The notes: a model not told the origin generated them from the letters alone. A stretch of 64,000 bases of DNA from a virus (IMGVR_UViG_2974727065_000001:11088-75087); one strand, 5' to 3'. Shown: positions 2 through 31,268, counted from the first letter of the stretch. Translations and numbers: made by a program.

Positions 2-3000
2 TGGACTAACCCTGCTGATATGGGTTATGTTGCTGGTTTCCGTGTGAAGATCACTGATGTGAATGCTGGTGAGACTCGTATCTTTGATGCTCCTGCTTCT
101 CCCTTTGAGCGTGACTATCCTCGCGGAGTCTTGCTAGAGGCTACCGTAGAGAGCTACAACGGGGCTGCTAAAGGGGGTGGGTATCTAACTCCTCAACAGC
201 ACACCACAGCGGCAGACTCTGTACCTCCTGCGGTACCTCAGAACCTCAGTGGTACTGGTGGTTTCAATACCGTCTGGTTGGAGTGGAGTAAAGTTGGTGA
301 CACTGACCTCGCTTACTATGAGGTTGTTAAACGGACTGTGGGCGCTTCTGCTCCGGGTGTAAATCCGTCAAACGTCAAACAAGCAACTGACAACAGCTAT
401 GCTTATCTTGGGCTTCCTGATAATCACAACCGTGACTACTACGTCCGTGCTGTGGACACTTCGGGTAACAAGTCTGCATGGTCTACTAAAGTGAACGTCG
501 TAACTAAAGATCCTGCTCTGACGGGTGTTACAAGTGACGATATCGCTGGGATCGTTCGTGAGGACTCTTTTGTTCTCGGCCTCGAACCGATCAAGACTGT
601 GAATACACTTCCTGACCCTAATGGTTATACGGGTTCTAGTGTTGTCCTTCTGACGACTGATGGCAAGACTTATAGGTATCACAATGGCGCTTGGACTGCT
701 GAAGTCCCTGCTGTAGATATCTCCGGTCAGATCCAGAATAATCAGATCAATACTGTGAATGCTGCCAAACTGACGGGAACGATCAATGAAGCTCGTATCG
801 CTGGTCTCGCTGCAAGCAAGATTACGGGTGAACTCACAAGTGACCAGATTGCTGACTTGGATGCTGCAAAGATCGCTGGACAACTCACGGATTCTCAACT
901 TGCTGGTATTAGTGCTGGTAAACTTGTTGGCAATATCGTATCTAGCCAGATTGCTTCTATTGATTCAGCTAAACTGACGGGAACGATCAATGAAGCTCGT
1001 ATTGCTGGCCTCGCTGCAAGCAAGATCACTGGCCAACTGACTGACGGTCAAATCGCCAGCGTAGCCACGGCTAAACTTACCGGGGAAATTGTAGCAAATC
1101 AGCTTGCTCAAGGTGCGACTCTGAAGGACCAACCTGTATTCACTATGGATCAGGACTCTCCTTATACGATCACACCAGCAAATGGTTCGGTTAGCTATGA
1201 CTCGACGGATAAGTACTCTGGTACTCATGCTGCACTGATCACCTTCACGGATGCGTCAAACCCCAGTGGGGGTGGCAATACAGGAGCACCCTTTATCACG
1301 ATCCCCGATCTGGTTGCTCTTCGCTTCGGCGGTAAGAGGATCCGTATTAGTGGTTATGCGAAAGCTCCTTCCACGAATGCAGCTTCTGAATTTGGTGTAG
1401 CGTACTCTACCTCTGACAATGGTAACTCTGGTTTCCAGAAGTTCACACCAACATCGTCTTGGAAGGAATTCTCTTTCACTTACGATGTACCAACCCCTGT
1501 TGCGGGCGGTAGTGACTACCTCGGGTTCTGGGCTGACACATCAAACTCTGGTAAAGGTACTCTGTTCGACCAGTGGTCTATTGAGATTATTGAGGATCTC
1601 GGCTTGGCGTCAGGTCAGATCACTGAGACTCAGATCTCGGATGATGCCATTTCTACACCTAAACTGAAGGCAAATGCAGTAACAGCGAGTATCATCGCTG
1701 CGAATGCTGTGGTCGCTGATAAGATCGCTGCGAATGCTGTGGTCGCTGATAAGATTGCTGCGAATGCAATTACTGCTGGTAAGATTGCTGCTAATGCGGT
1801 AACTGCAAGTGAGATTGCCGCTGGAGCCGTGACAGCTAGTGAGATTGCCGCTGGAGCTGTGGTTGCTGACAAGATCGCATCTAATGCTATTACAGCAGAG
1901 AAGATCGAAGCAGGAGCTATCACGGCGGCTAAGATTGCGGCTAACACAATCGGTGCAGGTCAGATTGCAGCTAATGCTATCACTGCAAGTGAGCTTGCAT
2001 CAAACTCGATCCAGTCGGGGCACATCACCTCAAATGCTATCGTTGCAGCGAAGATTGCATCTAATGCTATCACATCTGTGAAGATCAATGCTGGTGCTGT
2101 AAATGCCGATAAGCTTGCTGCTAATGCTGTGACTGCTGGTAAGATCGATGCAGGAGCGGTAACTGCTGGGAAGATTGCATCCAACGCTGTAACTGCCAAC
2201 AAGATCGCAGCTAACGCTATCACTGCTGGTAAGATCGATGCAGGAGCAGTAACGACTGCCAAACTTGCTGCGGGTTCTGTTGAAGCCTCGAAGATTGCTT
2301 CTGGTGCTGTGACTACTGCTAAATTGGCAGTGGGTAACGGCGGGAACATGATTGAGAACTCTAACTGGACTGCTGGTCTTTCTACCGTAGCCAACTATTC
2401 AAATGATAGTACGACCTTCAAGAATCAACACTCTTGGCGGATCCGTCCGGGTTCTGAAGGGTGGTCTGGGGGACATGGTGTTCTTGAGATTAGACAGGGA
2501 GGTACTGCTTCAGGGACTATGAACACTTACCTTCATAGGATGGGTGGAAGTAGCACCTACGGTTGGCCTTGTAAACCGGGTGCGAAGTACTCGGCCTCTG
2601 TGCAGATGTCTGTTCACCGTTGTACTGCGAGAGCGGTTGTTGTATTCCGTCGAGCTGATAACTCTTGGATCGATGCCTATGACATTGGGAGTAATAATGG
2701 TGCTCAAGGGAGTTCGGAGGTTATCGATGACTGGCCTATGGTTTCAAACATCGTAACAGCCCCTACTGCTGCACGTTACGCCCAGCTTATCATCTACAAG
2801 ACTGGTACAAACAGTGGTTCGGATAGTTATGTGTTTGTTCACAAACCTATGCTTGCGGAAACCCATGCAGAAGCTACTGAAGCGACTCCTTATAGCCCTT
2901 CTGGTGCAACTCTGATCTCTGGTAATGAAATCATGACCGGAGCCATTACTGCTGAAAAGATTGCTGCGAACTCTATCTCGGCAGTCCAAATTGCAGCTAA

Positions 3001-5287
3001 TACGATTGGTGTTTCTGAACTTTCTGCTAACGCGGTGACTTCGGATAAGATTGCGGCGAATGCTGTGTCTGCTGGTAAGATTGCCACTAATGCGATCTCG
3101 GCAGGGAAGATCCAAGCGGGTGCTGTGAGTGCTGACAAACTGGCTGCGAAATCGATTACGGCTTCAAAGCTTGCTGTTGGTGACTTCACTAACTTGAACC
3201 CTGATATGGACTTCGCTGACCCTGATGGGTGGACGGGTATCACTCGTCGTATCCCTACAGGTGTTGATTGGGGTGGTACAACCGGGGTTGAACTTGATGG
3301 TGCTTCTAACACACACAAAGTAGCGACTTCCAAGCATATCATTAACTTCGACCCTCTTGGTGAGAAGCTTCGGTTCGAGTACCGTGCAAGGAACCGCTTG
3401 GGGAATGCTGGTTATGTGTATGCAGATATCCAGATTTCTAAGAATCCTACGTTCACTGGCACTAACGGGACTGATTATACGTTCCGTAGTGTGGGTAACA
3501 CTGGCAACAACTATAATGCTGTGGACTTCGCTGGGGATATTGACATCCCTGCTGGATTTATCTATGGTCGAATTCGTTTGATCAAAGGTAACAACGGTTC
3601 TACTCGTGCTCAGTTCGGTGTTCCTCGTCTCTACCGTAAGAACGCTGGTAAGTTGATCGTTGATGGCTCTATCAAAGCAAACCATGTTGGTGCCAACGAG
3701 ATTATCGCTAATACGGCGAATATCAAGAATGGTGTCATCACGAATGCTAAGATTGCCAATGCGACTATCGAGAACGTTAAGATCAAAGATGGTACGATCG
3801 AGAATGTCAAGATCAAGAACTCAACTATTACGGGTTCCAAGATTGCTGGCTCTACGATTGCAGCGTCTAACATCAAGAACTCGACCATCACTGGTGGCAA
3901 GATCGCAAACGCAACGATCACGGGCGGGAATATCTCGACCAATACAATCGAAGCAACGCACATCAAAGCTAACACCATCACAGGTGACAAGATCAAAGCT
4001 AACACTATTTCGGCTGACAGGCTGAAGATTGGTGTTGGTGGCGGTAACTTGCTCCTGAACACGGACTTTAGCCAAGATGTTGTACACTGGTATCTAAACA
4101 AGTCTGGTAACATTGGTTCTAGTGGTCGTTACCATATCCGGCCTCCGGGTTCTTGGTCTGGTCGTGACTTCCCTGTTCTGGAAGTAGCTTCGAGCCGTGA
4201 TACAACTTCGAGTGGTTATGTTGAGGCACAGCTGCGGGTTCAGAACCCTGATGGAAGCTGGCGTCGTGGTGTCCCTGTAACTGGTGGTAAGTGGTATCAA
4301 GCTTCGGCTCGTATCAACGCACTCCGGTCTAAACTCTTGATGGAAGTACGATGGTATGATGACTCTGGTAATCAGATTGATCAGGACTCTGTGTCTGATA
4401 CGAACCCCTTCTCCTCTTCGAGTGCGGATCCGGGTTCTTGGCGCTTGTACAGCAAGAACTGGCAAGCTCCTTCTGGTGCTGAGTCTGCGGTCATCTGTTT
4501 CCGTTTGACTGAGACCACAAGTAACTCTGATGGTTACATCTTCGTCCACAATCCCCAACTAGTTGAAGTGGATGGCTCTGCGGTTCAGTATGTTCCGTAT
4601 GGACCGGGTGGCACTACTACTATCAACGGTGGTTCTATCCGTACAGGGTCGATTACTGCTGGTGTGGGTATCTTCCAAAATGGTCTGAAGTCGAGCAACT
4701 TTAACGGTGCTATGACGTCCAGTGATATCACTAACTATGGTACTGCTGGTTGGGCTATTGCGAGTAATGGTGATGCAGTATTCAATAACCTTGTTGCCCG
4801 TTCGTGGGTTCAGGTTGGTGCTGTGTCGAAAGGTGCTTCTTACAGTGGTTACTCAAGTGCAGGTAAAGTTGATGGTGACGTTGTTACTCGTACAACTGGA
4901 CCCTTCTCGCTTGGGGAATTCTGGCAGATTGCGGCTAGGATCGAGTATCGTACTCGTAAACGTACCTCGATCTACTATCAGGGCAAAGGTGGTTCCAGCT
5001 ACAGTAGGTATCGTCACAGGACTCGTCCTTACCTCGAATATCGAGAGAAGAACGGTGGGACTTGGAGCGGCTGGACTGTACTTCACCAGTTCCCAGATAG
5101 CCCTACTAACGATTCTTGGACGACACAGGAAGTTGTGAAGTCTAAGATGGACAGTAACCAAGATACTCAGATTCGTATCCGTGTCCATGTCTACGCCCAA
5201 AATGCGGGGGATAGTAGCAATGGCTGGAACGACGATTGGAAGAACGTCCGTAACGTAACACTCTATTCGCGAGCACTTGTTCGCTAA
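2..5287 (+). CDS. Large tail fibre / host-specificity protein (5'-truncated by window edge)
   Basis: The frame is open from base 2 (WTNPADM...). It contains an FN3-like domain (PPAVPQNLS...WSKVGDTDLAYYEV...YYVRAVDTSGNKSAWS), long 10-aa repeat tracts (ANAITAGKIA-type) and interspersed beta-sandwich/CBM-like domains. It lies upstream of the lysis genes. Confidence 0.85.
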   Translation, partial: WTNPADMGYVAGFRVKITDVNAGETRIFDAPASPFERDYPRGVLLEATVESYNGAAKGGGYLTPQQHTTAADSVPPAVPQNLSGTGGFNTVWLEWSKVGDTDLAYYEVVKRTVGASAPGVNPSNVKQATDNSYAYLGLPDNHNRDYYVRAVDTSGNKSAWSTKVNVVTKDPALTGVTSDDIAGIVREDSFVLGLEPIKTVNTLPDPNGYTGSSVVLLTTDGKTYRYHNGAWTAEVPAVDISGQIQNNQINTVNAAKLTGTINEARIAGLAASKITGELTSDQIADLDAAKIAGQLTDSQLAGISAGKLVGNIVSSQIASIDSAKLTGTINEARIAGLAASKITGQLTDGQIASVATAKLTGEIVANQLAQGATLKDQPVFTMDQDSPYTITPANGSVSYDSTDKYSGTHAALITFTDASNPSGGGNTGAPFITIPDLVALRFGGKRIRISGYAKAPSTNAASEFGVAYSTSDNGNSGFQKFTPTSSWKEFSFTYDVPTPVAGGSDYLGFWADTSNSGKGTLFDQWSIEIIEDLGLASGQITETQISDDAISTPKLKANAVTASIIAANAVVADKIAANAVVADKIAANAITAGKIAANAVTASEIAAGAVTASEIAAGAVVADKIASNAITAEKIEAGAITAAKIAANTIGAGQIAANAITASELASNSIQSGHITSNAIVAAKIASNAITSVKINAGAVNADKLAANAVTAGKIDAGAVTAGKIASNAVTANKIAANAITAGKIDAGAVTTAKLAAGSVEASKIASGAVTTAKLAVGNGGNMIENSNWTAGLSTVANYSNDSTTFKNQHSWRIRPGSEGWSGGHGVLEIRQGGTASGTMNTYLHRMGGSSTYGWPCKPGAKYSASVQMSVHRCTARAVVVFRRADNSWIDAYDIGSNNGAQGSSEVIDDWPMVSNIVTAPTAARYAQLIIYKTGTNSGSDSYVFVHKPMLAETHAEATEATPYSPSGATLISGNEIMTGAITAEKIAANSISAVQIAANTIGVSELSANAVTSDKIAANAVSAGKIATNAISAGKIQAGAVSADKLAAKSITASKLAVGDFTNLNPDMDFADPDGWTGITRRIPTGVDWGGTTGVELDGASNTHKVATSKHIINFDPLGEKLRFEYRARNRLGNAGYVYADIQISKNPTFTGTNGTDYTFRSVGNTGNNYNAVDFAGDIDIPAGFIYGRIRLIKGNNGSTRAQFGVPRLYRKNAGKLIVDGSIKANHVGANEIIANTANIKNGVITNAKIANATIENVKIKDGTIENVKIKNSTITGSKIAGSTIAASNIKNSTITGGKIANATITGGNISTNTIEATHIKANTITGDKIKANTISADRLKIGVGGGNLLLNTDFSQDVVHWYLNKSGNIGSSGRYHIRPPGSWSGRDFPVLEVASSRDTTSSGYVEAQLRVQNPDGSWRRGVPVTGGKWYQASARINALRSKLLMEVRWYDDSGNQIDQDSVSDTNPFSSSSADPGSWRLYSKNWQAPSGAESAVICFRLTETTSNSDGYIFVHNPQLVEVDGSAVQYVPYGPGGTTTINGGSIRTGSITAGVGIFQNGLKSSNFNGAMTSSDITNYGTAGWAIASNGDAVFNNLVARSWVQVGAVSKGASYSGYSSAGKVDGDVVTRTTGPFSLGEFWQIAARIEYRTRKRTSIYYQGKGGSSYSRYRHRTRPYLEYREKNGGTWSGWTVLHQFPDSPTNDSWTTQEVVKSKMDSNQDTQIRIRVHVYAQNAGDSSNGWNDDWKNVRNVTLYSRALVR

Positions 5288-5305: not shown

Positions 5306-5713
5306 ATGCAAGTCAAATACCTTCAGCTTGATGCTCAAGGTTTTCTGGTGACGGGAGTGGGCTTCGGCCCCTCCCTACCGGAGAATGCTATCATGGTAAT
5401 TGAAGGTGTAAACCTCGAAGACATCCCAGAAAACTACTACTTTCAGGATGGTATGCTTCACAAGGCACCTCTCTCACCTTCCCCTGAAGAGACCGAAGAT
5501 GGTTATATCATCCGTGGACTTATCGCAGGGACATCTATCAACGTAATCGATAACGCAGACGGTTCATCGATTGTCTCCGTAACTACAACCGAAGAGCAGA
5601 CAGAACTTGAGTTCGCTCTCGAAGACGAAGGATCTTATACCGTGGAGGTGGATCTTCCTGAACCGTCTCGTATGTCCTCCACTGTAATTGAGGTCTCAAA
5701 TGCTGAGGATTAA
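5306..5713 (+). CDS. Hypothetical tail-associated protein
   Basis: Strong RBS (AAGGAG); directly follows the tail fibre; acidic, 135 aa. Confidence 0.6.
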   Translation: MQVKYLQLDAQGFLVTGVGFGPSLPENAIMVIEGVNLEDIPENYYFQDGMLHKAPLSPSPEETEDGYIIRGLIAGTSINVIDNADGSSIVSVTTTEEQTELEFALEDEGSYTVEVDLPEPSRMSSTVIEVSNAED

Positions 5714-6125
5714 ACGTACTGAGGAAGCTAAACAGGCTCCTCTCAAGAAAGTCAAAACAGAAGCTGTTTGTCGTGTGAACTGTGTAGCTGACGAAGTTCG
5801 TCGTCTCTATATTACTCCGATCGCAGGGCAAGAGCTTATTTACATGAAGAAAGAGGAAGAAGCTAAAGCGTTCCTCGCTATAGAAACTGAACCTGAAGAT
5901 CTTTCTGAATTCCCTTTCATTGGAAGCGAGATTGGTTCTACTGGAATGTCTCCGAGAGAAGTTGCAGAGGTATTCTATGAGCGTTCCCAAGCTTGGAAGT
6001 ATATCGGGGTTATGATCGAGAGGTTGCGGGTTAATGCCCTTTCTGGGATTAAAACTGCTTCCTCGGAAGAAGAAGTGAATCAGCTTGTTGAATTCTATGA
6101 AGAAGATATGGAGGAACTGCGATGA
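5700..6125 (+). CDS. Hypothetical tail-fibre-associated protein
   Basis: ATG at 5700 after GAGG; helical protein with the GQELIY..K..EA pattern typical of proteins following tail fibres. Confidence 0.55.
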   Translation: MLRIKRTEEAKQAPLKKVKTEAVCRVNCVADEVRRLYITPIAGQELIYMKKEEEAKAFLAIETEPEDLSEFPFIGSEIGSTGMSPREVAEVFYERSQAWKYIGVMIERLRVNALSGIKTASSEEEVNQLVEFYEEDMEELR

Positions 6126-6628
6126 AATTCAGTTACCACCCTCTCAAAGATCTCCGTCATCGTTTCCGAGAATTGATAGAAATCACTGGTGGTCGTGATC
6201 CTGTTGAATACCGTACAAGACTCCGTCAGATGATGCAGATGGGTCTACACCTGTGGATCGCTGAAGACAATTACCGAATTGTTGGATCTATCGGTTTCAT
6301 GACTGAACCCGGTGAAACAGGCTGGACCAAGAGTGAAGCAATGAAAGAGGCCGCAATCGAGAAAGGTATCGACCCTGATACTGTTCAGGTACGCTCCTTG
6401 ATTTATGTACATCCTGACTACCGTGGGAAAGGTCTGGCAGATGAACTTGAGAAACGAGCAAACCGTACATCCTTGGAACTAGGTTTCAAATACCGGGCTG
6501 CTTTTGCTTACGATAATGAAGAGATTTATAAATGGATTCACCGTCACGGGAATGCTATTGATCTTCTTCCTGAAGAACCAACAGGTACGGGTTTTCCGGC
6601 CACTCTTGTCCCTTTGGATAACGTATGA
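6122..6628 (+). CDS. GNAT-family acetyltransferase
   Basis: Acetyl-CoA binding motif A: YVHPDYRGKGLA. Confidence 0.75.
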   Translation: MKFSYHPLKDLRHRFRELIEITGGRDPVEYRTRLRQMMQMGLHLWIAEDNYRIVGSIGFMTEPGETGWTKSEAMKEAAIEKGIDPDTVQVRSLIYVHPDYRGKGLADELEKRANRTSLELGFKYRAAFAYDNEEIYKWIHRHGNAIDLLPEEPTGTGFPATLVPLDNV

Positions 6629-8114: not shown

Positions 8115-8260
8115 ATAGGGTGCGTTAAATAAGGGAACCCCCTTGAATAATAGGGTGCGTTAAAGAAGGGAACCCTCCCTTTCCCGAAATTCCACCCTTT
8201 CTATGCTCATCTTTCTTGATGAAAAAGAACAGAAAACAATAGGTGACGTTAAAGAGGGGG
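8115..8260 (+). promoter_or_regulatory. Cluster of three class II phage promoter-like motifs upstream of the portal
   Basis: ATAGGGTGCGTTAAA at 8115 and 8150; ATAGGTGACGTTAAAGAGGGGG at 8239. The same motif recurs across the window. Confidence 0.75.
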
Positions 8261-8294: not shown

Positions 8295-9908
8295 ATGTCA
8301 GAACAGAATATTTCCGTAGCTGCTGTAAAGAAAAGTGTAGCTACTCCTTCTCATGAGTATGAATCCATGAGAGACGTTTGGGCGAAGTGTCGAGCGATCA
8401 TTCGAGGTCAAGAGTCTGTTAAAGCTCATGATGCGATAGTGAATGATTATGATGAGAACGGTAACAACCGTAATCTACTGCTCCCCTTCAGTCCTTCCAT
8501 GACTCAAGCTCAGTATGACTTCTATAAGGATGAAGCTGAACTTCCCGGTATTACTTCTCAGTATGCTAAATCAATGATTGGTGCTCTTCTCCGTAAGGAC
8601 GCTGATATTGAGCTTCCTGAAGAACTTCCTGAAACACAACGAGAGGAAATCACTGAATGGCTTCGATCGAAGTTCACTTCAGATAACCGTTCTCTCTTCC
8701 ACTTCCTAGACAATGCTCTTTGGGAGGAAATGCAAACCTCTTCTGCGTGGGTTTATGTTGATGTACCTGATGTCGATGAAGATATCATTGATCAGCTAAC
8801 ACCAGAACAGAAAGAGCTTATCAAACCCTATCCTACCTTGCTTAGTGGTGAGAGTGTGATTAACGTGATTCACGGTATTCATCCTGTAACGAAGGTTCCT
8901 TCTATGGTTCGTTTCGTAACACGGCAACTCAAACCTCACTTCACAAGTGATAACCCTTGGCATCCTAAACTGGTAGACACTGTACGTGATCACTATTTGG
9001 ATGAAACAGGATTGCTTGTCGTTGACGAGTGGGTATTGGATAACAGCGGAACTCAAGCTTCTTCCGAAAACGGTAAGATCCGTCATGGTGAACTTGAACC
9101 TGAAGCCGCTGGTAAGGATGCACCTCAGTTTGAGAAGAAACAGTCTTACTTCCCGGAGAAATTCGGCAAACGACTTACACAAATCCCTGCTTGGCCTCTT
9201 GATGGAGAATCTTTCATTGAGGAGCCTATCTTGCTTACCTTCGTCAATCGCGAGGTTGGCCTTTACAATAAGGTATCTCGTCGTAACCACTTGATGTATG
9301 GTGCTGCAACCTACACACCTATCATCATTGGTGATACTGATGAAGAAGCTCAAGCAAAGATCCTTTCCTCTGGTCTTGGTTCTATCTGGTTCCTTGAAGC
9401 TAACACTACTGTTGATACTCTGGCTCCGCCTACTGAATCCCTTACAGACATGCAGAATGCTATCTCCGCTACAATGGATGAACTTGCACGTATGGGTATT
9501 CGTATGCTGGCCCCGGATACCGCAGAATCAGGTGTTGCTCTTGAACTTCGTAATGCTGGTCAGACTGCCTCTCTAGGTACTCTGAACCAGAAGATTTCAA
9601 CCACAATGCGACAAGTGTTCGCCTTCATGATCAACTGGCGTTATGATATGGAACTCACAAGTGAAGATATCAAATTCACTATGTCGAGTGACTTTAGCCC
9701 ACAAGCTCAAGGTGAAGCGGGTATGCGTCTTGTTGGGGAGTGGTATCAGATGGGTCTTATCCCTCGTTCTGTCTTCCTTGACATGGCGAAGAAGAATGAC
9801 TATATCCCGTCTGAGTATGATGATAATGAAGGTCAAGAAGAAATGGAGAAAGATCCAGTTCAGATGGCTAATGCTCAAGCAGAGCAGGATGTGACAATCC
9901 AAGAATAA
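8295..9908 (+). CDS. Portal protein (DUF4055-like)
   Basis: 537 aa, first gene of the head module; LLPFSPSM...Y.FY..AELP, ESG.AL and C-terminal W...GLI.R motifs typical of siphovirus portals. Confidence 0.82.
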   Translation: MSEQNISVAAVKKSVATPSHEYESMRDVWAKCRAIIRGQESVKAHDAIVNDYDENGNNRNLLLPFSPSMTQAQYDFYKDEAELPGITSQYAKSMIGALLRKDADIELPEELPETQREEITEWLRSKFTSDNRSLFHFLDNALWEEMQTSSAWVYVDVPDVDEDIIDQLTPEQKELIKPYPTLLSGESVINVIHGIHPVTKVPSMVRFVTRQLKPHFTSDNPWHPKLVDTVRDHYLDETGLLVVDEWVLDNSGTQASSENGKIRHGELEPEAAGKDAPQFEKKQSYFPEKFGKRLTQIPAWPLDGESFIEEPILLTFVNREVGLYNKVSRRNHLMYGAATYTPIIIGDTDEEAQAKILSSGLGSIWFLEANTTVDTLAPPTESLTDMQNAISATMDELARMGIRMLAPDTAESGVALELRNAGQTASLGTLNQKISTTMRQVFAFMINWRYDMELTSEDIKFTMSSDFSPQAQGEAGMRLVGEWYQMGLIPRSVFLDMAKKNDYIPSEYDDNEGQEEMEKDPVQMANAQAEQDVTIQE

Positions 9909-9975: not shown

Positions 9976-10051
9976 TCCCCTGTAGTTCAGTTGGTAGAAC
10001 ACCGGACTGTTAATCCGTATGTCGCTGGTTCGAGTCCAGCCGGGGGAGCCA
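9976..10051 (+). tRNA. tRNA-Asn (GTT)
   Basis: Cloverleaf with acceptor TCCCCTG/CGGGGGA, anticodon loop CTGTTAA, T-loop TTCGAGT and an encoded CCA. Confidence 0.95.
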
Positions 10052-10055: not shown

Positions 10056-10129
10056 TGCGCGGTAGTGTCAAGTAACACGGTAGGTTCATTACCTACAACT
10101 GGTGGTGTCAAGTCCACCCGGCGCAACCA
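10056..10129 (+). tRNA. tRNA with CAT anticodon (Met or Ile2), atypical
   Basis: D-stem GTGT/ACAC, anticodon stem GTAGG/CCTAC with loop TTCATTA, T-stem GGTGG/CCACC and ACCA end. The T-loop is non-canonical and there is one acceptor mismatch. Confidence 0.75.
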
Positions 10130-10154
10130 ACTAACCAATCAGGAGATTGCTAGA

Positions 10155-13100
10155 ATGGACATCAATCAGAAGATTTTTGATCAGATCGTTGATCATATGG
10201 GTGATGTACGTCTCTTTGAGGAGAGCGTTCAAATCGGCAATCGCCGTATCATCCGTCGCCATAGAGAGCGCCTACGAGACCTTCTCCGTAGAGACCTCAA
10301 AGAACGAACACGTTCTAATGAACCTCTGCGTCGAGAACAATCACGTTTCGCTACAGAGCTTTTCTCATGGCAGAAAACAAACCTTATGGAATTGAGCACC
10401 GCTGAAATTGACTTTATCAGTGATGCGATCTATAAGCAAACAAGAGATTTTTACCGTACACGGAAGCCTTCCACAAGGGAACTCCTTGCTGAGATTACAG
10501 GTCCGGGTATGGTGGGTGAGAAATCACTCAAAGGGAACATCAGAAACATTTCTTCTGGTGAACTCATACGTATTCAAACAAAGGTAAAGGCAGGTCTCGC
10601 TGCTGGTGCTAAGCCTGATCAGATCATTCAGGAAGTCATGAAGACTACCAAGATCACTCAGCATCAAGCAGCCACACTCACGAGAACTTCAATCACCAGC
10701 ACCCAAAGGGAAGCTGTAATGTCGGTCATGGAGAACAATGATTCTCTGATCAAAGGTTACATGTTCTCCGCTATCCTTGATAGCCGGACTTCTGGTATTT
10801 GCCGTTATCACAATGGTAAGATGTATCCTATCTCCGAGAAACGCTACAGGCCACCACTCCACTTCAACTGTCGTTCTACGATGGTTCCTGTTCTCAAAAG
10901 CAAGTCTGAATTGGCTGCTTCTAAGTCTACTCGGATCAACAAAGATGCTCTTGCAAAGAAACAACCCCAAAGCCTTTCCGGTAAAGCTCCACCTAAAGAA
11001 TCCTTTGGTGAATGGCTGAAGCGTCAAGTTTTTGATGTCCAAGTGAAGATGCTTGGAAGTGAAACTAAAGCGAACCTCTTCCGAGAAGGTAAGTTGAAGG
11101 CTGAACAGTTCATCAATGCTGCAGGGGATGCACTATCGATTACTGCTCTCCGCCGTAGGGCTGCCCTCGCTACAGAGGTATTCACGCCACGTCAGAAGAT
11201 GCGTTCTGTTGATGTTGATATCCGGGTGTCTCGTCCGAGTACTCTGGTCAACAATCCTAAGTTCCGCACTGAGGTAAGAAACCTGTATGTACTCGACTCT
11301 GATGACTGGAACAAGACTTTCGCTCTGACTGACTTCAAAGGTACAACCCTTCAAGGTAAGCAAACGGCTCGTCGGCGTGTTGGTAATCAATTCGATGAGA
11401 GTAACCACAGCTTTGATCCCTTGACTGGTGAAGCGAAGAATAACAACCTCTATGATCCCAACTTCCAGTTGTATCAGGAGCGTCTTGACTTCATGCGTAA
11501 CTCCAAGATCCTTCGTCCAGAGCACAAAGGTTTCATCCAAAGCGTATCAGATAGTCTTGAAGATAAGGTGTCGGTGAACCAACAGACAGTTGTCGTTGAG
11601 AACCTCCGTGTTGTCCTTGAACGTGCTATCAAAGATGGTAAGCCTTGGGAAGACTTTGCTTCTGTACTCCGGGCTGAGAACCGTTTTGCAGTTCAGAACG
11701 TCTCACGTCTTCTGGACACTCGCCAAAGGAAACGTAACAATCTGTTCGCTCGTTTCTTCGGTTCTAAGGACAAACCTGAGATCCAGATCATGGGTAAGTA
11801 CTACACCTTGGACCAGTTGAACGCTGATATCTTGAAAGACCAGAGAGAGATTGACTCTTTCCGTCGCAAGTATGGAACCAAACTCGCGGCTGATCTTTAC
11901 CTCAAAGGTAAGGCTCCTGCTCGTGCCTACTTCCACGGTCTTGCAGGGAAGTTCCCAACCAAGAAGAAGATCAAGAAACGTCTTCTGGAAATGGTTCCTT
12001 TCAAGAAAGAGTATGACGCTTACGTCAAGAAACGTGGTGAACCTAAAGATGAATGGTGGATCCGTCAAGCTGCTAAGTTCAATGAAGCCTATCGAAATAT
12101 CATTGATGCTGAGTGGGCAACTCTGAGTAAGAAACCTTCAACAGCACTGCTGGATGATAAGGTGATCAACTCTCTGTCTAAGTCTGTCAAGCTTGTGGCT
12201 TCTGGTCAGATGACTGACTATGATGGTCTCGCTATTGCTATCGGTAAACAGATGGCGAAAGACTTCGAAGACATCCTTCCTTTCACAAAGCATACGCTTC
12301 AGAGCTACCACAAAGAAGGCTCTCGTATCCTTGATTACATGGTAAAGCGACGTCTGATCCGAACTAATTTCCGTGGTAAAACCCGCCGTGGTGTCTATGA
12401 TGTGGACACTGGTAGAGCCTCTGGCTCGTGGGGTGATACTGTATCCCGTGAGGTTGAGATTCTTGATAAAGACATGTTGAAGCTACAAGAAGCAGAACGC
12501 CGTGTGACTATCGCTCGTCGTCTCGGTGTAGTGAATCCTCGTGATCGTCTTTACGTCCGTGCTAACAAGAAAACCTACGTTGACTCTCGTGGTAACGACA
12601 CTGGTATTCCGATTATCTCCCGTAGTAAAGCCGCGAGCTATGATCCGAAACAGATCGACCATGAAATAGCTAACATGATGAACCATGCAATGAACGTCGA
12701 GTATGAGGTTGATAATCAGTTTGTTGACTTCATGGATAGTGTTGTTCGCTTCCGTGACCCTCGTGGTAATGCGAAGTACTATGACTCTATCAACGAGTTC
12801 CGTCATGACATCCTGAAACGTGGTGATGCTGGTTATGGTCTTATGACTACAGCTAAGTGGCACGCTCAAAGAGGTAAGCCCTTCAAGACCTATGTGTACA
12901 TTGACTCTCGTGGTCGTGTATATCATCGTGGTTACTTGACACCTACTGGTGGTGAAATGGTCCGTCCTTTCTTGAACGACTCGAAAGCTACTCCTATGAA
13001 TTTCCGCGCTCTGGAAGAGTTGAGACTTCAAACAGGTGCCTTGATCGGTCCCGGTACAGAGGCTCTGACTCACCAAGGTCGTATGGAGATCTTCAAAAGG

Positions 13101-14546
13101 CATAAGAAACAAATACTTGAACTCGGTGAAATCCTACTGCAAACTACTCAGAGAGATCGTCGCATCCGTGAGTTCCTTGAGCATCCGCTAATCCGTAGTA
13201 CGGAGGGTGTAGAGGTTCCTAAGATGGCCCGTCTCGCTATGGAGTATGCGCGTATTCATCGACACACAAAAGGTGACATCAACAATGATCGTCTCCTGAA
13301 AACTTACAAAACCAAACTGATGGTAGAGAACGATGCTTCGGCATCTGGTGCTCAGATTATCGGACTCTCAACAAGGGACCGTGATATCTCCTTCGCATCC
13401 AATGTTGTTCCTACCCCTCAGAAGAACCGTCTGTATGACCTCGTTGCTATGGACACTATTGATGACCCTGAGTTTAGAAAGATCCCGGCTCTTCGTGATG
13501 CTGGATTGACTTGGGAAGACCTTGCTAAAGGCGCTAAGGCGGCTAACATGGTTACATTCTATGGTGCTGGTGCTGCAACTCAGGCTGCAAACGTAACAAA
13601 CAAAATGGTGAAAGTCCTTCAAGGAAAGGGATTTATCACTGTGACCAAAGATGAGCTTACGAACCAACTTCGTATCATCGACGGTAAAATCAAGGTGGCT
13701 GATCGTATCGGTGCCTCGGTGACTGTTGATGAGCTACGAGCATTCCGTTCAGAACTCATTGATATGGTCAATAACCAACAAAGCACTGGAATCAAACTCC
13801 TGAAAGAAGCTGAAGACATTCACCCTGATACTGCTGAATTCGTTAGAAAACTAACTGATCGCCGTAAGGGTCTTGTCGGGCCGAAGGACTTTGAACGAGT
13901 TGCTGAGATTATGGCTAAGAACCTGAATGCCCGTGCTCCTGTTACGGGAAAGTTCATTCAGTTCTGGAAGAAGGTCGCGAAAACGTATGTGAATGACTCT
14001 CAAAGCGTAGATATCCCGTGGGTAACGTTTGATGGGAAAACCATGATGCAGCGTTATCGTCCTCAACTCCAACAGAGGATCGATTTTACTGATCCTGTTT
14101 CTGGCCGAAAGATTATGAACATTTATCAAGCGGAAGCCGAAGACGGTAAACTACTTGGTAAGGGTTCGGTTGCAGACGCCTCGATTGGTCTTGGTGTTAA
14201 CGGCAACCACTCCAACGATGCCGTGATCGTTCGAAGGTTCCACTTGTGGGGCCGGAAGGAAGGTATCTCTACTGGAACCATCCACGATGCTTTCTTTACA
14301 AACGTCGCGGAAGCTGATCGTGCTGTTTATAAACTGCGAGAGATTTACGCAGATGCTATGGAGAGCAACACGATTGCAAATACCCTGAAGGCTATGCGTA
14401 AGCATGGTATGTCAGAAAAGAACTACAGAGCATTGCTCCGTGAGGCGAAGGAACTCGGTCTGATCAACCCTGCTAATCCTGTGCGCCGTGAGGAAGTGCT
14501 CGCCCCGATCCCGGAAGGTCAAACCTACTATGGGATTGGTCCGTAA
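10155..14546 (+). CDS. MuF (SPP1 gp7-like) head protein fused to a single-subunit T7-type RNA polymerase; putative virion RNAP
   Basis: MuF motifs: LDSRTS.IC, PPLHFNCRS, ESFGEWLKRQ. RNAP motifs: DSRGRVY, A (NDASASGAQ), B (AKAANMVTFYG), NHSNDA and C (IHDAF). ATG 10155 follows AGGAG; the ORF-track start at 10065 lies inside the tRNA. Confidence 0.88.
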   Translation: MDINQKIFDQIVDHMGDVRLFEESVQIGNRRIIRRHRERLRDLLRRDLKERTRSNEPLRREQSRFATELFSWQKTNLMELSTAEIDFISDAIYKQTRDFYRTRKPSTRELLAEITGPGMVGEKSLKGNIRNISSGELIRIQTKVKAGLAAGAKPDQIIQEVMKTTKITQHQAATLTRTSITSTQREAVMSVMENNDSLIKGYMFSAILDSRTSGICRYHNGKMYPISEKRYRPPLHFNCRSTMVPVLKSKSELAASKSTRINKDALAKKQPQSLSGKAPPKESFGEWLKRQVFDVQVKMLGSETKANLFREGKLKAEQFINAAGDALSITALRRRAALATEVFTPRQKMRSVDVDIRVSRPSTLVNNPKFRTEVRNLYVLDSDDWNKTFALTDFKGTTLQGKQTARRRVGNQFDESNHSFDPLTGEAKNNNLYDPNFQLYQERLDFMRNSKILRPEHKGFIQSVSDSLEDKVSVNQQTVVVENLRVVLERAIKDGKPWEDFASVLRAENRFAVQNVSRLLDTRQRKRNNLFARFFGSKDKPEIQIMGKYYTLDQLNADILKDQREIDSFRRKYGTKLAADLYLKGKAPARAYFHGLAGKFPTKKKIKKRLLEMVPFKKEYDAYVKKRGEPKDEWWIRQAAKFNEAYRNIIDAEWATLSKKPSTALLDDKVINSLSKSVKLVASGQMTDYDGLAIAIGKQMAKDFEDILPFTKHTLQSYHKEGSRILDYMVKRRLIRTNFRGKTRRGVYDVDTGRASGSWGDTVSREVEILDKDMLKLQEAERRVTIARRLGVVNPRDRLYVRANKKTYVDSRGNDTGIPIISRSKAASYDPKQIDHEIANMMNHAMNVEYEVDNQFVDFMDSVVRFRDPRGNAKYYDSINEFRHDILKRGDAGYGLMTTAKWHAQRGKPFKTYVYIDSRGRVYHRGYLTPTGGEMVRPFLNDSKATPMNFRALEELRLQTGALIGPGTEALTHQGRMEIFKRHKKQILELGEILLQTTQRDRRIREFLEHPLIRSTEGVEVPKMARLAMEYARIHRHTKGDINNDRLLKTYKTKLMVENDASASGAQIIGLSTRDRDISFASNVVPTPQKNRLYDLVAMDTIDDPEFRKIPALRDAGLTWEDLAKGAKAANMVTFYGAGAATQAANVTNKMVKVLQGKGFITVTKDELTNQLRIIDGKIKVADRIGASVTVDELRAFRSELIDMVNNQQSTGIKLLKEAEDIHPDTAEFVRKLTDRRKGLVGPKDFERVAEIMAKNLNARAPVTGKFIQFWKKVAKTYVNDSQSVDIPWVTFDGKTMMQRYRPQLQQRIDFTDPVSGRKIMNIYQAEAEDGKLLGKGSVADASIGLGVNGNHSNDAVIVRRFHLWGRKEGISTGTIHDAFFTNVAEADRAVYKLREIYADAMESNTIANTLKAMRKHGMSEKNYRALLREAKELGLINPANPVRREEVLAPIPEGQTYYGIGP

Positions 14547-14623: not shown

Positions 14624-15370
14624 ATGGCAAAAACTGCTGAAGAACTCGAAGCTGAACTGGAACGTCTGCGCAAGCAACTCGCTGGAGAGGAGTCCAATGA
14701 AAACGGTGAAACAAGCGAAGAAGAAACCAATGAGGACGAAACCGAAAACGAAGACAACGGTGAAGCCAACGAGGAAACCAACGAAGAGACCGAAAACAAG
14801 CAACTGACCGAAGAAGAAATCAAGGTCGCTGCTCTGAAAGAGTCCCTGAACAAACTGGACAAGAAACTCAAGGAAGAAGCCAAAGCTCGCGCTGCTGCTG
14901 AGAAGAAACTCAAAGATGCTGAGATTGAGCGTCTGCGTAGCGAAGGTAAAGAGGCGGAAGCTCTCAAAGCTCAAATGGAGCAGCTGGAAGCTGAGCTTGC
15001 TGTATTCCGTGATGAAAACACTGCTCTGAAACGTGACCGCGTTCTGGACGATGCTTTGTCTGGTGTTGAATTCCGTAATGACCGTAGCCGTGCTATGGCT
15101 CGTCGGGAGATCGTTGAAAATCTCACTCAAGATGAGAATGGTAGCTGGGTATCGAAAGATGGATCCTCGATCGATGACTATGTTACCGCCTATACTGAGT
15201 TGGAAGATAATAGCTTCCTGTTCAAGCAAAAGACTAACCGTGGTTCGCAATCGCAACCCGGATCAACCCCTAATACGGGTGATGAGACACCCAAATCTAT
15301 TCTTGATGTTCCGCAAGATCAATTTATGAAACAAATCGAAAAGAAACTGCGGTCTCAAGGACTCCGATAA
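14624..15370 (+). CDS. Capsid scaffolding protein
   Basis: Acidic N-terminus, long coiled coil and FLFK..RGS tail; immediately upstream of the capsid gene. Confidence 0.8.
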   Translation: MAKTAEELEAELERLRKQLAGEESNENGETSEEETNEDETENEDNGEANEETNEETENKQLTEEEIKVAALKESLNKLDKKLKEEAKARAAAEKKLKDAEIERLRSEGKEAEALKAQMEQLEAELAVFRDENTALKRDRVLDDALSGVEFRNDRSRAMARREIVENLTQDENGSWVSKDGSSIDDYVTAYTELEDNSFLFKQKTNRGSQSQPGSTPNTGDETPKSILDVPQDQFMKQIEKKLRSQGLR

Positions 15371-15385: not shown

Positions 15386-16507
15386 ATGACTATCTCTACT
15401 TCCCAATTTCAGGTAATCGAAGAAGTCGTGCGCCAGTACGCGCATGAAGCCTACACCAACTCGAAGAAACTGGTCGGCACTGGTATCGTGGGTCAGCGTT
15501 CCGACGTTGATGGCGATGTTGAATCGTACATCGGTCAGTTCCGCTGGTACAAACCCCTGAACCCGACCGTTAACGTTGCCTCGGCTACCGATGCGACTGA
15601 CGGTACCCTGACCGACATCAGCACCGACAAAGCCAAGTACGTGAAGACTGTCCGTACCTTCGGTGGTGAACAGGTGAACGTTGCTGAAGTGATCACCAAA
15701 GAAGATGGCCTGAAGAAACTGGCTCGCGATCTGGCCCAAGTCCAAATGGACGACCAAGGCGAAGCTCTGATGGCTGTTCTGAAGGGTGTCGCTGCTACCG
15801 AAGTTGAAGCAGGTAATGCTGCTGGCGGTGGTAACGGTGGTATCGTTGACTTCGACACTGACGCTGATGCTGCTAACACTGGTATGTTCGTTGACATCAA
15901 CGCTGACTCGCCCGTGTTCGGTTCCGCTGCAACTGGTGCTAACGACGCCCGTAAACTGTTCGACTCGAACGGTATCGGTGCTGCTCGTGGTGAGCGTCTG
16001 TTCCAAGCTCTGGGTATGGGCTTCAAGGACCATGAACCGAACTTCATGTATATGGCTGCTTCTCCGCAGACTATTGCTGAACTCCGTGCTGCTAACCTCG
16101 TGGACGAAACGAAGGTGACTGACGGTGAACTCGAATTCACCACTGTCTTTGATGGTAAGTTCCGTCTCCTGCCGACCCGTCAAGGTCAGATGGCTGGTGG
16201 TCTCACCGCTGGCAACCTGAACGCTCAGTCCACCAAATGTACCTTCATTATGAAGCCGAATGCTGTGTCGTTTGCTCCGGTTCAGGCTCCGATGCCTGTT
16301 GAACTGGATCGGAATGCTGCTGCTTACCGTGGTTCGGGTAAAACCCAACTGTGGTACCGCTGGGGCTTCGTGTTCCACCCCGAAGGTTACACTTGGGCAG
16401 GTAGCGAGAACGAGTTCGCAACCAACGCTGCTTATGGTGCTGCTGCTTCGTGGACCCGTAAAGTGTCGGCTCTGAACCTGCCGATCCTGCCGATCTTCCA
16501 CGCGTAA
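15386..16507 (+). CDS. Major capsid protein
   Basis: 373 aa, strong codon bias, follows the scaffold; C-terminal W.R.GFVFHPEGY.W pattern. Confidence 0.85.
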   Translation: MTISTSQFQVIEEVVRQYAHEAYTNSKKLVGTGIVGQRSDVDGDVESYIGQFRWYKPLNPTVNVASATDATDGTLTDISTDKAKYVKTVRTFGGEQVNVAEVITKEDGLKKLARDLAQVQMDDQGEALMAVLKGVAATEVEAGNAAGGGNGGIVDFDTDADAANTGMFVDINADSPVFGSAATGANDARKLFDSNGIGAARGERLFQALGMGFKDHEPNFMYMAASPQTIAELRAANLVDETKVTDGELEFTTVFDGKFRLLPTRQGQMAGGLTAGNLNAQSTKCTFIMKPNAVSFAPVQAPMPVELDRNAAAYRGSGKTQLWYRWGFVFHPEGYTWAGSENEFATNAAYGAAASWTRKVSALNLPILPIFHA

Positions 16508-19680: not shown

Positions 19681-22600
19681 ATGGTTGATACACCGAACCG
19701 TAAAGGTGTTCGCATCAAGGTTACTGCGGATACCGCAAAGGCCCGTGCTGACATCAACAAACTTAACGGCACGTTTCGGACGGTAGAAACGGGTGCTGCC
19801 CGTGCTGCTAATAACATCAAACGAATTGCGGTCTCTCTTGGTGCTGCTTTTGCTGGCGGCGCTGCTGTACGTGGGATTAACCGCGCTACTGACAGCTTCG
19901 TTGATATGGAGAACCAAGTCGCTCTCGTTGTAGGGCGTACTGACCAACTCCAAAAGCAAATGGATGAGATTTACAAGATCTCTTTGAAGACCAAAGCTCC
20001 GGTATCTGCTACGGCAGAATCCTTCTCGCGTATGGGCCGTGCTCTCGCTGACTCTGGTGCCTCGATTGAGGACATCAACAAAGCGGTTGTCACCCTGAAC
20101 AAAGCCTCGACTATCTCTGGTGGTTCTGTAGAATCCCAGAAAGCAGCTATCTTCCAGCTGGGTCAGGGTCTTGCTTCGGGTACTGTTCGTGGTCAGGAAC
20201 TTAACTCGGTGATGGAACAGCTTCCTCGTGTCGCTAAAGCTATCGCTGATGAGTTGGGTGTCGGTCTTGGTGGACTCCGCGCTCTCGCTGAAGAGGGTGA
20301 GGTGACTACTGAGGTTGTCTTCAAAGCTATGTTGAATCAGGCTGAGAAAGTGAACGCTGAATTCGGAAACATTCAGTTGACTTCCTCGAAAGCAATGGTT
20401 CTTCTGATCGATCAGGTCAAACGACTGACTGCTGACATTAGTAAAGCTACTGGCTTCACTGATGCCTTCACTCAACGGATTGTCAAGCTGACTGACTATC
20501 TGGCTGGGAACCGGGAAAGTATTGTTTCTGGTGTGGTCGAAACCCGTGACAAAATCAAAGAGCTTATCGGAAGCTTCAAAGAACTAGCTACCCTTGATGT
20601 TGCCCGTTCTTTTGCTGTTGATACGTTCTCGTCCGTGCGTAGTCTCGCACAACAGTACCTTGGAGACGCTGAAGACTATATCCGTGGTTGGTCTCAACGG
20701 ATTACTAACTACTTCTTTGAAATCTATGATGAAGTGATTGGTAACTCGTGGTGGACTGATACAGTAATCGAAACCTATGAACTCGCCCAGACGTACTTGT
20801 CCAAAGCTGATGGTGTTGTCGGAAAGTTCCGTGACTCTGTAATCAGTAAGTTTGAGGACATCTATTCTAGTTCCTCTCGTGGGTTCAACTTTAACGTATC
20901 AGCTACGATCGAATCGGCTGGTAGCTTGCAAAACAAGATCATTGAGGTAGTTGCAGAAGGTATCCGACGTGGTGCTGCTGCAATCTCAAGTATCGCTCCT
21001 ACTATTCGGAAGTCTATGGAAGTGGCCCTCGCTGGTGCTTTCGTTGCTGTGTTCTCTACTGGGAGTATCACAAAGAGCCTTTCGAAACTCGCTAACAAAC
21101 TCTCCCCTCTGTTGTTCCTCGGTCTGGCTGCAAAGTTGGTAGAAGCAGTTGGTTCACCTTCTGTGTTCGCTGCCTTTGGCTTCCTTGCGGGTGAATTCAC
21201 AGGTCAGGTTGTAAACACCTTTATCTCCGCAATCCCTGAGATTGTCACAGGTCTGGTGTCCGGTCTGGCAGGTGGTATCTATGGTTTGGTAAGTGAAGCA
21301 GGTGTACTTGGTGGTACGGCCTTCGCTGTAACTGCTGGTCTCATTATGAGCAAATCCTTCCGTGGTCTGGCTGTTGATCTGACTAAAGCCTTCGCTGGTG
21401 GTACAGGTTTCTTCGGAAACGGTAGCAGTGCTGCGGCTCGTCTCTTTGATCCAAAGGCTCGAAAGGAAATGTTCAAAGACCTTGGTGGGGCTTTCCGTAA
21501 CCTGACCTTTAGCTCCATCCTGATTGCAGACAATGCTCTTGGTGCCTTGGCAGACACTTCTGCAAGGACTGCCCGGATCAATAATGCAACTTTGGCTCCG
21601 TCCTTCAACACGATCGGTCGCGCGGCTAACTTTGCTCGTCTCAAGACTCTTGGTCTTGCTGCGGCAATCACTCTCGCTGCTACTTCGGCTTTTGCTGGAA
21701 CTGGTGGTGAAGGTGGCGGTGGCGGTCTTACTGAAGTCGCCCTGTTGATCGGCTCTTCGCTGATCGGGCCTGAGATCGTTAACCTTGTAGGTAAAGGGTT
21801 CCGGCTCCTTGGTCGTACTGCAGCTTTCTCTTTCGTTGGTGGCCTCCTGACTTCCATCGGGACTGCTATTGCGGGGGCTGTCGCTGGGATCGTTGCTGCG
21901 ATCACTGCACCAATTACCCTTGCTATTGCAGGTATTGTGGCTGCTGGTGGTATCGCTTATGTGATGCTCTTCGGTGAAGGTGACAGCTTCATGGCGAAAG
22001 TCAAGGACGTGATCAATGATGTGAAAGCAGAGTTCAACCTCTTGAACGTCTCTACGTTTGCTGCATCGAAAGATTTCAGTTCTCGTATTGGTCGCTTGGG
22101 TAATCAGGGTCAACTCGGCTCGAACCGTTTCTTGAACAATCGGACTGAAGATCGTTTGCAGAACCTCAACTTCTTGTCTCTTGACGACTCTACCGCTCGT
22201 GAGCTTCTGGAAGCTACCTCTCGACTTGAGCAGGTGTCCCAGAAAGCAGCACAGGAGGAGGCTCGTTACAACCAGGTAAGTGAGGGTACTCGGAAGCAGA
22301 TCCTTGCTGCGCAGAGAGCACTCTTGGAGGCTACGGAAGCGGCAGAGGGCAACCAAGCAACACTTGGTCAGACCTTCTCTGATTCTCTCAGCCAAGCTAT
22401 TGCAAGTGAACAAGGTGCGCTGAACCTCACTTCGGAGGCTATCACAAGTGCTTTCCTTCCGTTCCTGCTCAACCAAGAGTCTCGAAACCGTAGGGAAATC
22501 ATGGATCTTGTACAAGGGAACAACCTTGAGACGATGGATGATATCCGGGTTCTCTTGGATAACCTTGCTGTTCAAGATCCTGCTCAACTGGCAACGATCA

Positions 22601-24657: not shown

Positions 24658-24686
24658 GGTCATCCCTTCGGGGGTGGCCCTTTTTT
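24658..24686 (+). terminator. Intrinsic terminator ending the morphogenesis operon
   Basis: GGTCATCCC-TTCG-GGGGTGGCC followed by CTTTTTT. Confidence 0.85.
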
Positions 24687-24702: not shown

Positions 24703-24734
24703 AAAAAGTGAGAAAACTAAGGCATCTATAATGA
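24703..24734 (+). promoter_or_regulatory. Class I (early) promoter-like repeat, copy 1
   Basis: AAAAAGTGAGAAAACTAAGGCATCTATAATGA, identical to 25150-25181. Confidence 0.75.
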
Positions 24735-24741: not shown

Positions 24742-25158
24742 ATGAAAGGAAGTAATATGAACTTCGCAATTCGTCACCCTCAAATCCAGAACCTCATTGA
24801 CCTTGCAATGGCTTACGGTGCCGGAGACAAGAAGATCCTCGAACTCCAACTGGACATTGTTCGTCGATCTTGTATGATGGAGTGTGAACCCCATGCAAAC
24901 CTGATTGTACTTCCGGGCTGTGAACTCGGTTACATGGAAGGTATTCCGGGCGTCCTTCAGAAGTATCGGGAGAACATCCGGTATGCTGATGCAGTTGTTC
25001 TGGACCAAGGGGATCTGTGGTACGTCATCAAAGATCGTTTTGCTGGACGCCACGGGCCTATCTCGGACGACTACTTCCGTCGTCTTTTTGTACGAGAGTG
25101 TAACAACGCTCTGCGCCAACGTCAAGAACTTTGGAGGGAAAAGACCCAGAAAAAGTGA
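24742..25158 (+). CDS. Hypothetical early protein
   Basis: ORF between the two class I repeats; the likely start is the second Met, after AAGGA. Confidence 0.6.
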   Translation: MKGSNMNFAIRHPQIQNLIDLAMAYGAGDKKILELQLDIVRRSCMMECEPHANLIVLPGCELGYMEGIPGVLQKYRENIRYADAVVLDQGDLWYVIKDRFAGRHGPISDDYFRRLFVRECNNALRQRQELWREKTQKK

Positions 25159-31256: not shown

Positions 31257-31268
31257 GACCTCACCCTT

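Follow-up and report, generated by a model that had tools for sequence, protein, structure and literature searches.

A MuF head protein fused to a T7-type RNA polymerase in a siphovirus genome and its candidate role in starting phage transcription from the capsid

Can a head protein docked at the portal bring a transcription enzyme into the cell together with the phage genome, and would such an enzyme be active? This question is raised by a gene in a 64,000-nucleotide (nt) stretch of viral DNA (IMGVR_UViG_2974727065_000001:11088-75087; hereafter, the window), which covers bases 11088–75087 of the 75,087-bp record of a marine siphovirus; this record has a completeness rating of 100%. The gene encodes a protein that begins as a MuF-type head morphogenesis protein and continues in the same frame into a single-subunit RNA polymerase (RNAP) of the T7 family. 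An original prediction, made by a model from the DNA alone, had proposed that the MuF part serves as a capsid-loading and delivery tag for this enzyme.

The MuF–polymerase fusion is real and under selection, because the same single frame is present in an independent isolate, roseophage DSS3_PM1 (MN602267; Naomviridae, Noahvirus), and because the codon differences between the two genes (68 synonymous and 7 non-synonymous) point to constraint across all three parts of the protein (21 and 3 in the MuF module, 27 and 1 in the middle domain, and 20 and 3 in the polymerase module, respectively). Gene 00060 of DSS3_PM1 is 98.3 and 99.5% identical to the fusion gene at the nucleotide and amino acid levels, respectively, and its record names it only 'minor head protein-like protein'. 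In the window, an uninterrupted open reading frame (ORF) spans 10065–14546 (+), so that both halves share one frame, as had been predicted. The ATG at 10155 is the likely start, as it is preceded by AGGAG and agrees with both the DSS3_PM1 annotation and the N-termini of homologues. The expectation that residues 1–340 belong to the MuF family was borne out: Pfam detected Phage_Mu_F (PF04233) at residues 140–243 with 51.7 bits (curated cut-off, 29.6), and the head morphogenesis family phrog_241 of PHROGs covered residues 3–340 (E = 2.4e-53). The C-terminal part was matched by RNA_pol (PF00940) at residues 1049–1422 with 27.1 bits (curated cut-off, 22) and by the RNA polymerase family phrog_414 (E = 4.9e-25). 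The MuF and polymerase motifs quoted in the original prediction were all found in place (Table 1).

The polymerase part resembles T7 RNAP in its catalytic residues and in its predicted fold. Among PDB sequences, T7 RNAP was matched by phmmer (E = 1.9e-4), and Asp1060 of motif A was aligned to a T7 Asp that we take to be D537. When residues 341–1463 were aligned with 34 homologues of 87–20% identity (35 sequences in total), R921, D1060, K1125, K1128, Y1136, G1137, D1355, and D1378 were invariant in all 35 sequences, and the five most divergent homologues had Tyr or Phe instead of the His ahead of the motif C Asp. The AlphaFold2 model of residues 341–1463 had a mean predicted local distance difference test score (pLDDT) of 82.2 and a predicted template modelling score of 0.75. 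T7 RNAP chains were its best PDB matches by Foldseek (probability 1.00, E = 1.7e-20, 900–1030 aligned columns), with template modelling scores normalised to the target of up to 0.60 at approximately 14–15% identity, and mitochondrial RNAPs ranked next. These matches agree with the RNAP fold that had been predicted for the C-terminal part. In the BFVD database, T7-like phage polymerases (E = 1e-23 to 1e-17) ranked ahead of N4-like virion polymerases (E = 1e-13 to 1e-10). Furthermore, hhalign aligned residues 674–1463 with residues 45–732 of the canonical polymerase encoded by the same phage (probability 99.9, E = 2.4e-31, 620 columns). The module of approximately 790 residues is thus complete and looks active on the basis of its alignment and model, and an active MuF–polymerase fusion is very likely real.

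The alignment with the canonical polymerase also shortens the stretch between the two modules. The original prediction was right that a stretch without assignment follows MuF, but its length is approximately 330 residues (341–673) rather than approximately 550, because residues 674–1463 align with the canonical enzyme. This middle domain is conserved across the family in the homologue alignment, and the AlphaFold2 model of residues 341–680 had a mean pLDDT of 80.7. Foldseek gave no PDB match at E ≤ 0.001 (best E = 0.38), the Pfam search returned no family, and the best score in the ESM Atlas (0.81) fell under the useful range. The domain may have a role in ejection or docking.

Homologues with the same architecture and synteny, for which the original prediction had proposed a search, were found in large numbers. 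At E ≤ 0.001, a word-indexed search with residues 800–1463 retrieved at least 455 of 8000 scored clusters (90% identity). Among the best 120 of the 455 clusters, 95 carried both PF00940 and PF04233, 20 (1402–1591 residues) carried PF04233 only, and 5 short ones (817–1180 residues) carried PF00940 only; the names given to the clusters were only 'SPP1 gp7 family putative phage head morphogenesis protein' or 'minor capsid protein'. An exhaustive phmmer search over 1.84 billion representatives yielded 137 matches, several of them fragments, and the full-length matches (1400–1560 residues) had the polymerase in their final ~660 residues. MuF was located at residues ~140–245 in all six divergent or long members tested. 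In IMG/VR, 134 relatives were confirmed and 80 loci were kept, of which 78 contain the polymerase part; where there was upstream room, MuF lay in the same stop-free frame in 59 of 60 loci, the remaining one was intron-split, and none was unfused. The polymerase part matched only five of 50,697 deposited phage records, namely DSS3_PM1, EBPR siphovirus 1, and three canonical polymerases at approximately 21% identity. Overall, the fusion is conserved down to approximately 20% identity and, judging from these sequences, is ancient and effectively universal within this polymerase clade.

In several relatives, the fusion gene is split within the motif B codons, at residues 1133/1134 to 1138 in the numbering of the window protein. 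The homologue in EBPR siphovirus 1 (L103, JF412302) is annotated as gp47 ('head protein', 1052 residues), gp48 (HNH endonuclease), and gp49 (431 residues), and its homology to the fusion protein breaks at residues 1133/1134, within motif B. The insert (5447–6307) matched the group I intron model RF00028 with 40.5 bits (E = 1.3e-8), which is below the gathering score of 50, and an ORF within it passed the HNH and NUMOD1 cut-offs. A group I intron was detected at the same place in L069 (4999–5806; RF00028, 88.2 bits, E = 6.7e-23), and homology likewise breaks at residue 1133 in L036 and L059. The split relatives are thus interrupted by a group I intron that encodes a homing endonuclease of the HNH/NUMOD type.

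The gene lies in the canonical MuF slot that had been predicted for it (portal, MuF, scaffold, capsid), as confirmed by the portal, scaffold, and major capsid genes that flank it according to PHROGs, with a tRNA-Asn gene found by ARAGORN placed after the portal gene. The fusion protein is the sole PF04233 match in the 75,087-bp genome. A portal homologue was present upstream on the same strand in all 34 relatives examined. For this check, 42 loci offered a complete portal ORF upstream, and 34 of them were entered; L031, L055, L056, L058, L061, L063, and L077 were left out as their fusion gene is cut by the contig end, and L022 was left out because its coordinates duplicate those of L019.

The genome as a whole encodes two RNA polymerases and one MuF domain. 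The second polymerase is a canonical T7-like enzyme, which shares only approximately 20% identity with the fused one over short stretches; a recent duplication as the source of the pair was therefore rejected. The same pair was present in all three complete relatives searched, one of which is merely ~28% identical, and these relatives have a collinear core in common with the present genome. Used as a single query against viral contigs, the canonical polymerase gave no confirmed locus. Directly upstream of the canonical gene (window 31257–31348), a long G+C-rich hairpin (GCCCCCTC...GGAGGGGGC) is followed by a T run and could be an attenuator or terminator for read-through from the early genes.

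Two classes of promoter-like elements were found. The bipartite class E element occurs twice in the window (0.00 matches expected), and both copies precede the early genes and the gene for the canonical polymerase. A terminator-like hairpin starts 10 nt past the stop codon of the tape measure gene, and class E copy 1 lies 28 nt beyond the hairpin. The element is also present in DSS3_PM1, L012, L014, L043, G001, and G002, and in the latter two it lies 2.3–4.9 kb upstream of the canonical polymerase gene. It is conserved almost letter for letter among genomes of 38–47.5% G+C, over a stretch of approximately 28–35 nt that includes bases past the hexamer TATAAT. Both copies had minimum free energies of −0.5 to −1.9 kcal/mol and folded no better than shuffled sequences; an N4-type hairpin promoter was thus rejected for class E. 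A third, partial class E core (CATCTATAATGA), without the AGTGAGAAAA half, was observed at window 56703–56718, preceded by a hairpin and T run (GGGCCAAAACGGCCCTTTTT).

The class L motif (ATAGGKKRCGTTAAAG), which is T7-like, occurs in 12 copies on the + strand of the window at up to two mismatches, versus 0.06 expected. The + strand of the whole genome carries 16 copies, four of which are in the 11 kb beyond the window, and the copies are often followed by AGGGGG. Class L is genome-specific, with relatives carrying their own differing versions, and is probably the promoter of the canonical polymerase. No convincing terminator was found between the class L copies at 8115–8254 and the fusion gene.

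These observations suggest a relay between the two polymerases. By analogy with SPP1 gp7 and Mu F, the MuF module, the only one of this phage, would dock the fusion protein at the portal inside the procapsid. The protein would be made late from the head-gene block, so that the polymerase would enter the capsid during assembly and be released together with the DNA when the next cell is infected. Packing into the capsid is proposed from the head-block location and the expected late expression, and a polymerase made only late would have no obvious use within the same cycle; with these analogies in mind, we consider packaging of the fused polymerase in the capsid quite likely. Once delivered, the enzyme would start at the two class E elements (24707 and 25154), just past the late terminator, and transcription would proceed across the early genes into the gene for the canonical polymerase. 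The canonical polymerase would then read the class L promoters genome-wide, those before the head genes included, which would close the cycle.

Class E needs a reader at time zero for the canonical polymerase to be made, and the candidates are the host enzyme and the delivered fusion. The length of class E and its conservation across genomes favour the fused enzyme. A three-genome comparison of the 77 columns up to a point just beyond HSxD weakly favours the same reader, as the fused enzyme had 38 invariant columns of the 77 and the canonical one 25. Altogether, we regard it as moderately likely that the fused enzyme, delivered from the capsid, initiates a relay of polymerases similar to the N4 and P23-45 relays, in which it would be packaged, injected, paired with class E, and able to act without the host polymerase.

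Several points weigh against this relay. The assignment of class E to the fused enzyme draws on the gene layout and on the weak three-genome comparison. Between class E and the canonical polymerase gene, a copy resembling class L, with one mismatch, is found within coding sequence at 27446; its position in the early region blurs a simple relay. Class E is approximately 36 kb from the record ends, unlike the early promoters of N4, which are end-proximal. Those of P23-45 are likewise described as end-proximal in the available text of PMC10770324. The main texts on DSS3_VP1 and DSS3_PM1 (PMC8323127 and PMC12697855) contain neither virion proteomics nor transcription data. According to PMC8323127, these two phages are siphoviruses of Ruegeria pomeroyi DSS-3 in whose DNA deoxyuridine (dU) replaces thymidine (dT). 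The window carries a cytidine-deaminase-type gene (Table 1), whose DSS3_PM1 counterpart is called a putative cytosine deaminase in the main text of PMC8323127 and which we infer to be the Dcd of PMC12697855. A Dcd homologue was found by tblastn in only one of the three complete relatives, so that the fusion design is not evidently tied to dU-DNA, although this point is weak because other deaminases could serve. Finally, class E contains a perfect TATAAT, and the host sigma-70 polymerase therefore stays a candidate reader.

If the host sigma-70 polymerase did read class E and start the infection, the packaged fusion would be an accessory that provides an early boost, pulls in the DNA, or primes replication. 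The TATAAT is perfect here and in G001, class E lies mid-record rather than at an end, and T7 itself uses the host polymerase for its own polymerase gene, all of which would suit this explanation. However, sequence inspection revealed no TTGACA-like hexamer 16–18 nt upstream of the TATAAT, and a sigma-70 scan of the region did not list the class E sites and gave no regional enrichment (16 sigma-70-like sites versus 15.3 expected). The hexamer is TATAAC in G002 and TTATAT in the G003 variant, whereas the longer stretch around it is kept across genomes of differing G+C content; owing to this long conserved stretch and varying hexamer, class E looks more like a promoter for a phage polymerase than like one for the host enzyme. 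The phage also encodes its own primase/helicase, a further point against this explanation. We thus consider the host enzyme an unlikely starter of the infection.

A role confined to the late stage is less probable still. The fusion would then not be delivered but would act where heads are assembled, at the portal or the procapsid, and might couple transcription to the processing of concatemers or to packaging, or serve as a tethered late-gene polymerase, as could be argued from its gene lying in the head-gene block behind class L motifs and from the role of T7 RNA polymerase in DNA maturation and packaging. Nevertheless, the late genes are already served by the canonical polymerase and class L motifs, and the conserved class E before the early genes would be left without a dedicated reader. 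Moreover, MuF proteins are described in the available text of PMC5512222 as head components and carriers of delivered effectors. It is highly improbable that the polymerase module has lost its activity and persists only as structural ballast or as a part of the head protein that binds nucleic acid. The low Pfam score of the polymerase part (27.1 bits) and the replacement of the His before the motif C Asp might be read in this way, but none of the 35 sequences deviates at the catalytic Asp pair or at the Lys, Tyr, and Gly of motif B, the module is under purifying selection relative to DSS3_PM1 (20 synonymous versus 3 non-synonymous changes), the whole T7 fold is kept in it, and homing introns target its motif B.

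Table 1. Features of the window that bear on the fusion gene and on the proposed relay (positions counted from the first base of the window)
Feature	Position	Strand	Evidence or remark
Class L promoter-like copies (ATAGGKKRCGTTAAAG) at 8115, 8150, 8239	8115-8254	+	ahead of the portal/MuF-RNAP/capsid block
Portal protein gene	8295-9908	+	phrog_145, E 6.8e-46; directly upstream of the fusion gene
tRNA-Asn (GTT), between portal and fusion genes	9976-10051	+	ARAGORN; annotated in DSS3_PM1 too
MuF-RNA polymerase fusion gene	10155-14546	+	1463 aa + stop, single frame
MuF / SPP1 gp7-type head morphogenesis module, aa 1-340	10155-11174	+	PF04233, phrog_241
Pfam MuF core, aa 140-243	10572-10883	+	Phage_Mu_F
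MuF motif LDSRTSGIC	10776-10802	+	
MuF motif PPLHFNCRS	10851-10877	+	
MuF motif ESFGEWLKRQ	10998-11027	+	
Middle domain, mostly helical, aa 341-673	11175-12173	+	AlphaFold2 model
T7-type single-subunit RNA polymerase module, complete, aa 674-1463	12174-14543	+	hhalign, Foldseek
DSRGRVY, aa 917-923	12903-12923	+	aligned to DWRGRVY, T7 RNAP residues 420-426 (phmmer)
Motif A NDASASG, predicted catalytic Asp1060 (codon 13332-13334)	13329-13349	+	aligned to T7 Asp
Motif B, K1125/K1128...Y1136 G1137	13527-13565	+	invariant 35/35
HSND (aa 1352-1355; 14208-14219) and motif C IHDAF (aa 1376-1380, predicted catalytic Asp1378; 14280-14294)	14208-14294	+	aligned to T7 HSQD, IHDSF
Scaffold gene	14624-15370	+	phrog_206 scaffolding, E 4.1e-7
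Major capsid protein gene	15386-16507	+	phrog_247 major head protein, E 1e-26
Tape measure gene, separate from fusion	19681-24648	+	open frames, DSS3_PM1 annotation
Terminator-like hairpin + T run	24658-24679	+	9-pair stem, 6 G-C pairs, then CTTTTTT
Class E promoter-like element copy 1, AGTGAGAAAA-N8-TCTATAATGA	24707-24734	+	motif search
Class E promoter-like element copy 2, identical 28 nt	25154-25181	+	motif search
Canonical T7-like RNA polymerase gene, 732 aa	31349-33547	+	Pfam RNA_pol 279.1 bits, E 8.5e-83; phrog_414, E 2.6e-132
Cytidine-deaminase-type gene	36511-37002		position matches DSS3_PM1 'deoxycytidylate deaminase'
Class L copies, window	8115, 8150, 8239, 18309, 27446, 34839, 35306, 35464, 44011, 48109, 55914, 62906	+	

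Regarding the record itself, 127 bases are identical at its two ends (window 63874–64000 and G000 1–127), for which IMG/VR assigns the class of direct terminal repeats; instead of marking physical ends, this repeat may have arisen where the assembly of a circularly permuted genome overlaps itself. In addition, repeats of 30 nt (10 codons) form long arrays (families D1 and D2, 21–26 copies) at window 1664–3174, within a giant gene of 2575 codons whose DSS3_PM1 annotation is host specificity protein J.

The relay invites a broader reading, which we advance tentatively and with some doubt: that a large siphovirus family of global distribution, represented in culture by the dU-DNA Naomviridae, can do entirely without the RNA polymerase of its hosts, as a MuF-anchored polymerase from the capsid would read the near-invariant class E and switch on a second polymerase with fast-evolving promoters, both enzymes being adapted to dU in DSS3_VP1/PM1. 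The family is common in metagenomes, and the window belongs to a cultured branch that infects the tractable model Ruegeria pomeroyi DSS-3, which makes the hypothesis directly testable. It is also relevant to the question of how first transcripts arise from a genome in which dU replaces dT, and the family could yield new compact polymerase and promoter pairs for biotechnology. If this broader reading holds, MuF would be a general capsid-loading tag that delivers a 90-kDa nucleic-acid enzyme, beyond small toxins. A delivered MuF-tethered polymerase would also widen the range of cargoes known for MuF.

A few phage groups carry RNA polymerases in their virions, namely N4-like and crAss-like podoviruses, jumbo phages, and P23-45, and each of them showed a new escape from dependence on host transcription. 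In N4, the virion protein gp50 is made late and contains a divergent T7-family polymerase domain, and a second, more canonical T7-like polymerase serves the next gene class. The present genome resembles N4 (Schitoviridae) in its gene content, with two T7-family polymerases, one of them inside a larger protein of the head block. N4, however, is a podovirus whose gp50 is far larger and lacks a MuF domain and whose early promoters form hairpins, whereas the carrier here is a siphovirus MuF head protein of 1463 residues, the polymerase fold matches T7-like enzymes more closely than N4-like virion polymerases, and class E, which would be the relevant early promoter, has no hairpin. Membership in the N4-like virion polymerases was accordingly rejected on the grounds of the BFVD ranking, the length, the MuF N-terminus, and the missing hairpin. 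The enzyme shares with T7 RNA polymerase (Autographiviridae) the fold, motifs A, B, and C, and the DxRGRVY segment. T7 RNAP, however, is free, made early, and not packaged, whereas the enzyme described here follows approximately 670 additional residues, is encoded among the head genes, and has a second polymerase beside it.

Fused carriers have been described on both sides of this comparison. According to the available text of PMC5512222, MuF proteins encoded next to the portal gene carry C-terminal enzymes thought to be delivered into the host, with RNases, 2H phosphoesterases, RelA/SpoT domains, and PRTases as cargoes; RNA polymerase is not mentioned there as a cargo. The fusion protein has the same layout as these polymorphic toxins and polyvalent proteins, namely an N-terminal MuF next to the portal gene and a C-terminal enzyme, but assignment as a MuF polymorphic toxin was rejected, given its C-terminal polymerase with an intact active site and no Pfam toxin family. 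The original prediction knew of no characterised MuF–RNAP fusion, and we likewise found no paper describing one among the listed hits of the full-text literature search, with supplements and subscription journals outside its scope; 'RNA polymerase', 'RNAP', and 'MuF' are absent from the main texts of PMC8323127 and of the enzymology paper PMC12697855. The claim about precedents has to be narrowed, however, as a siphovirus with a virion RNAP fused to its tape measure protein, although of the unrelated two-barrel family, is already known from the Thermus phage P23-45 (PMC10770324, available text).

In that phage, as described in the available text of PMC10770324, gp96 is the virion RNAP fused to the tape measure and gp64 is a non-virion RNAP; the virion enzyme transcribes the pre-early genes, among them the one that encodes the second polymerase, and transcription relies on two different promoter motifs. 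The words MuF and T7-like do not occur in that text. The present phage parallels P23-45 as a siphovirus with a structural protein fused to an RNAP, two phage polymerases, and two promoter-like classes. The enzymes of P23-45 are two-barrel polymerases related to cellular RNAPs and have a tape measure carrier, whereas the polymerase here is of the T7 family and fused to MuF, with a separate tape measure gene, and a P23-45-type fusion was rejected on these grounds. The fusion therefore belongs to neither the N4 nor the P23-45 family, since its polymerase is of the T7 type and not two-barrel, resembles T7-like enzymes more than N4-like ones, and is carried by MuF. If the proposed relay is correct, this MuF-tethered T7-family enzyme would represent a further, independently evolved solution alongside these two, and the first to use a carrier as widespread as the portal-associated MuF protein.

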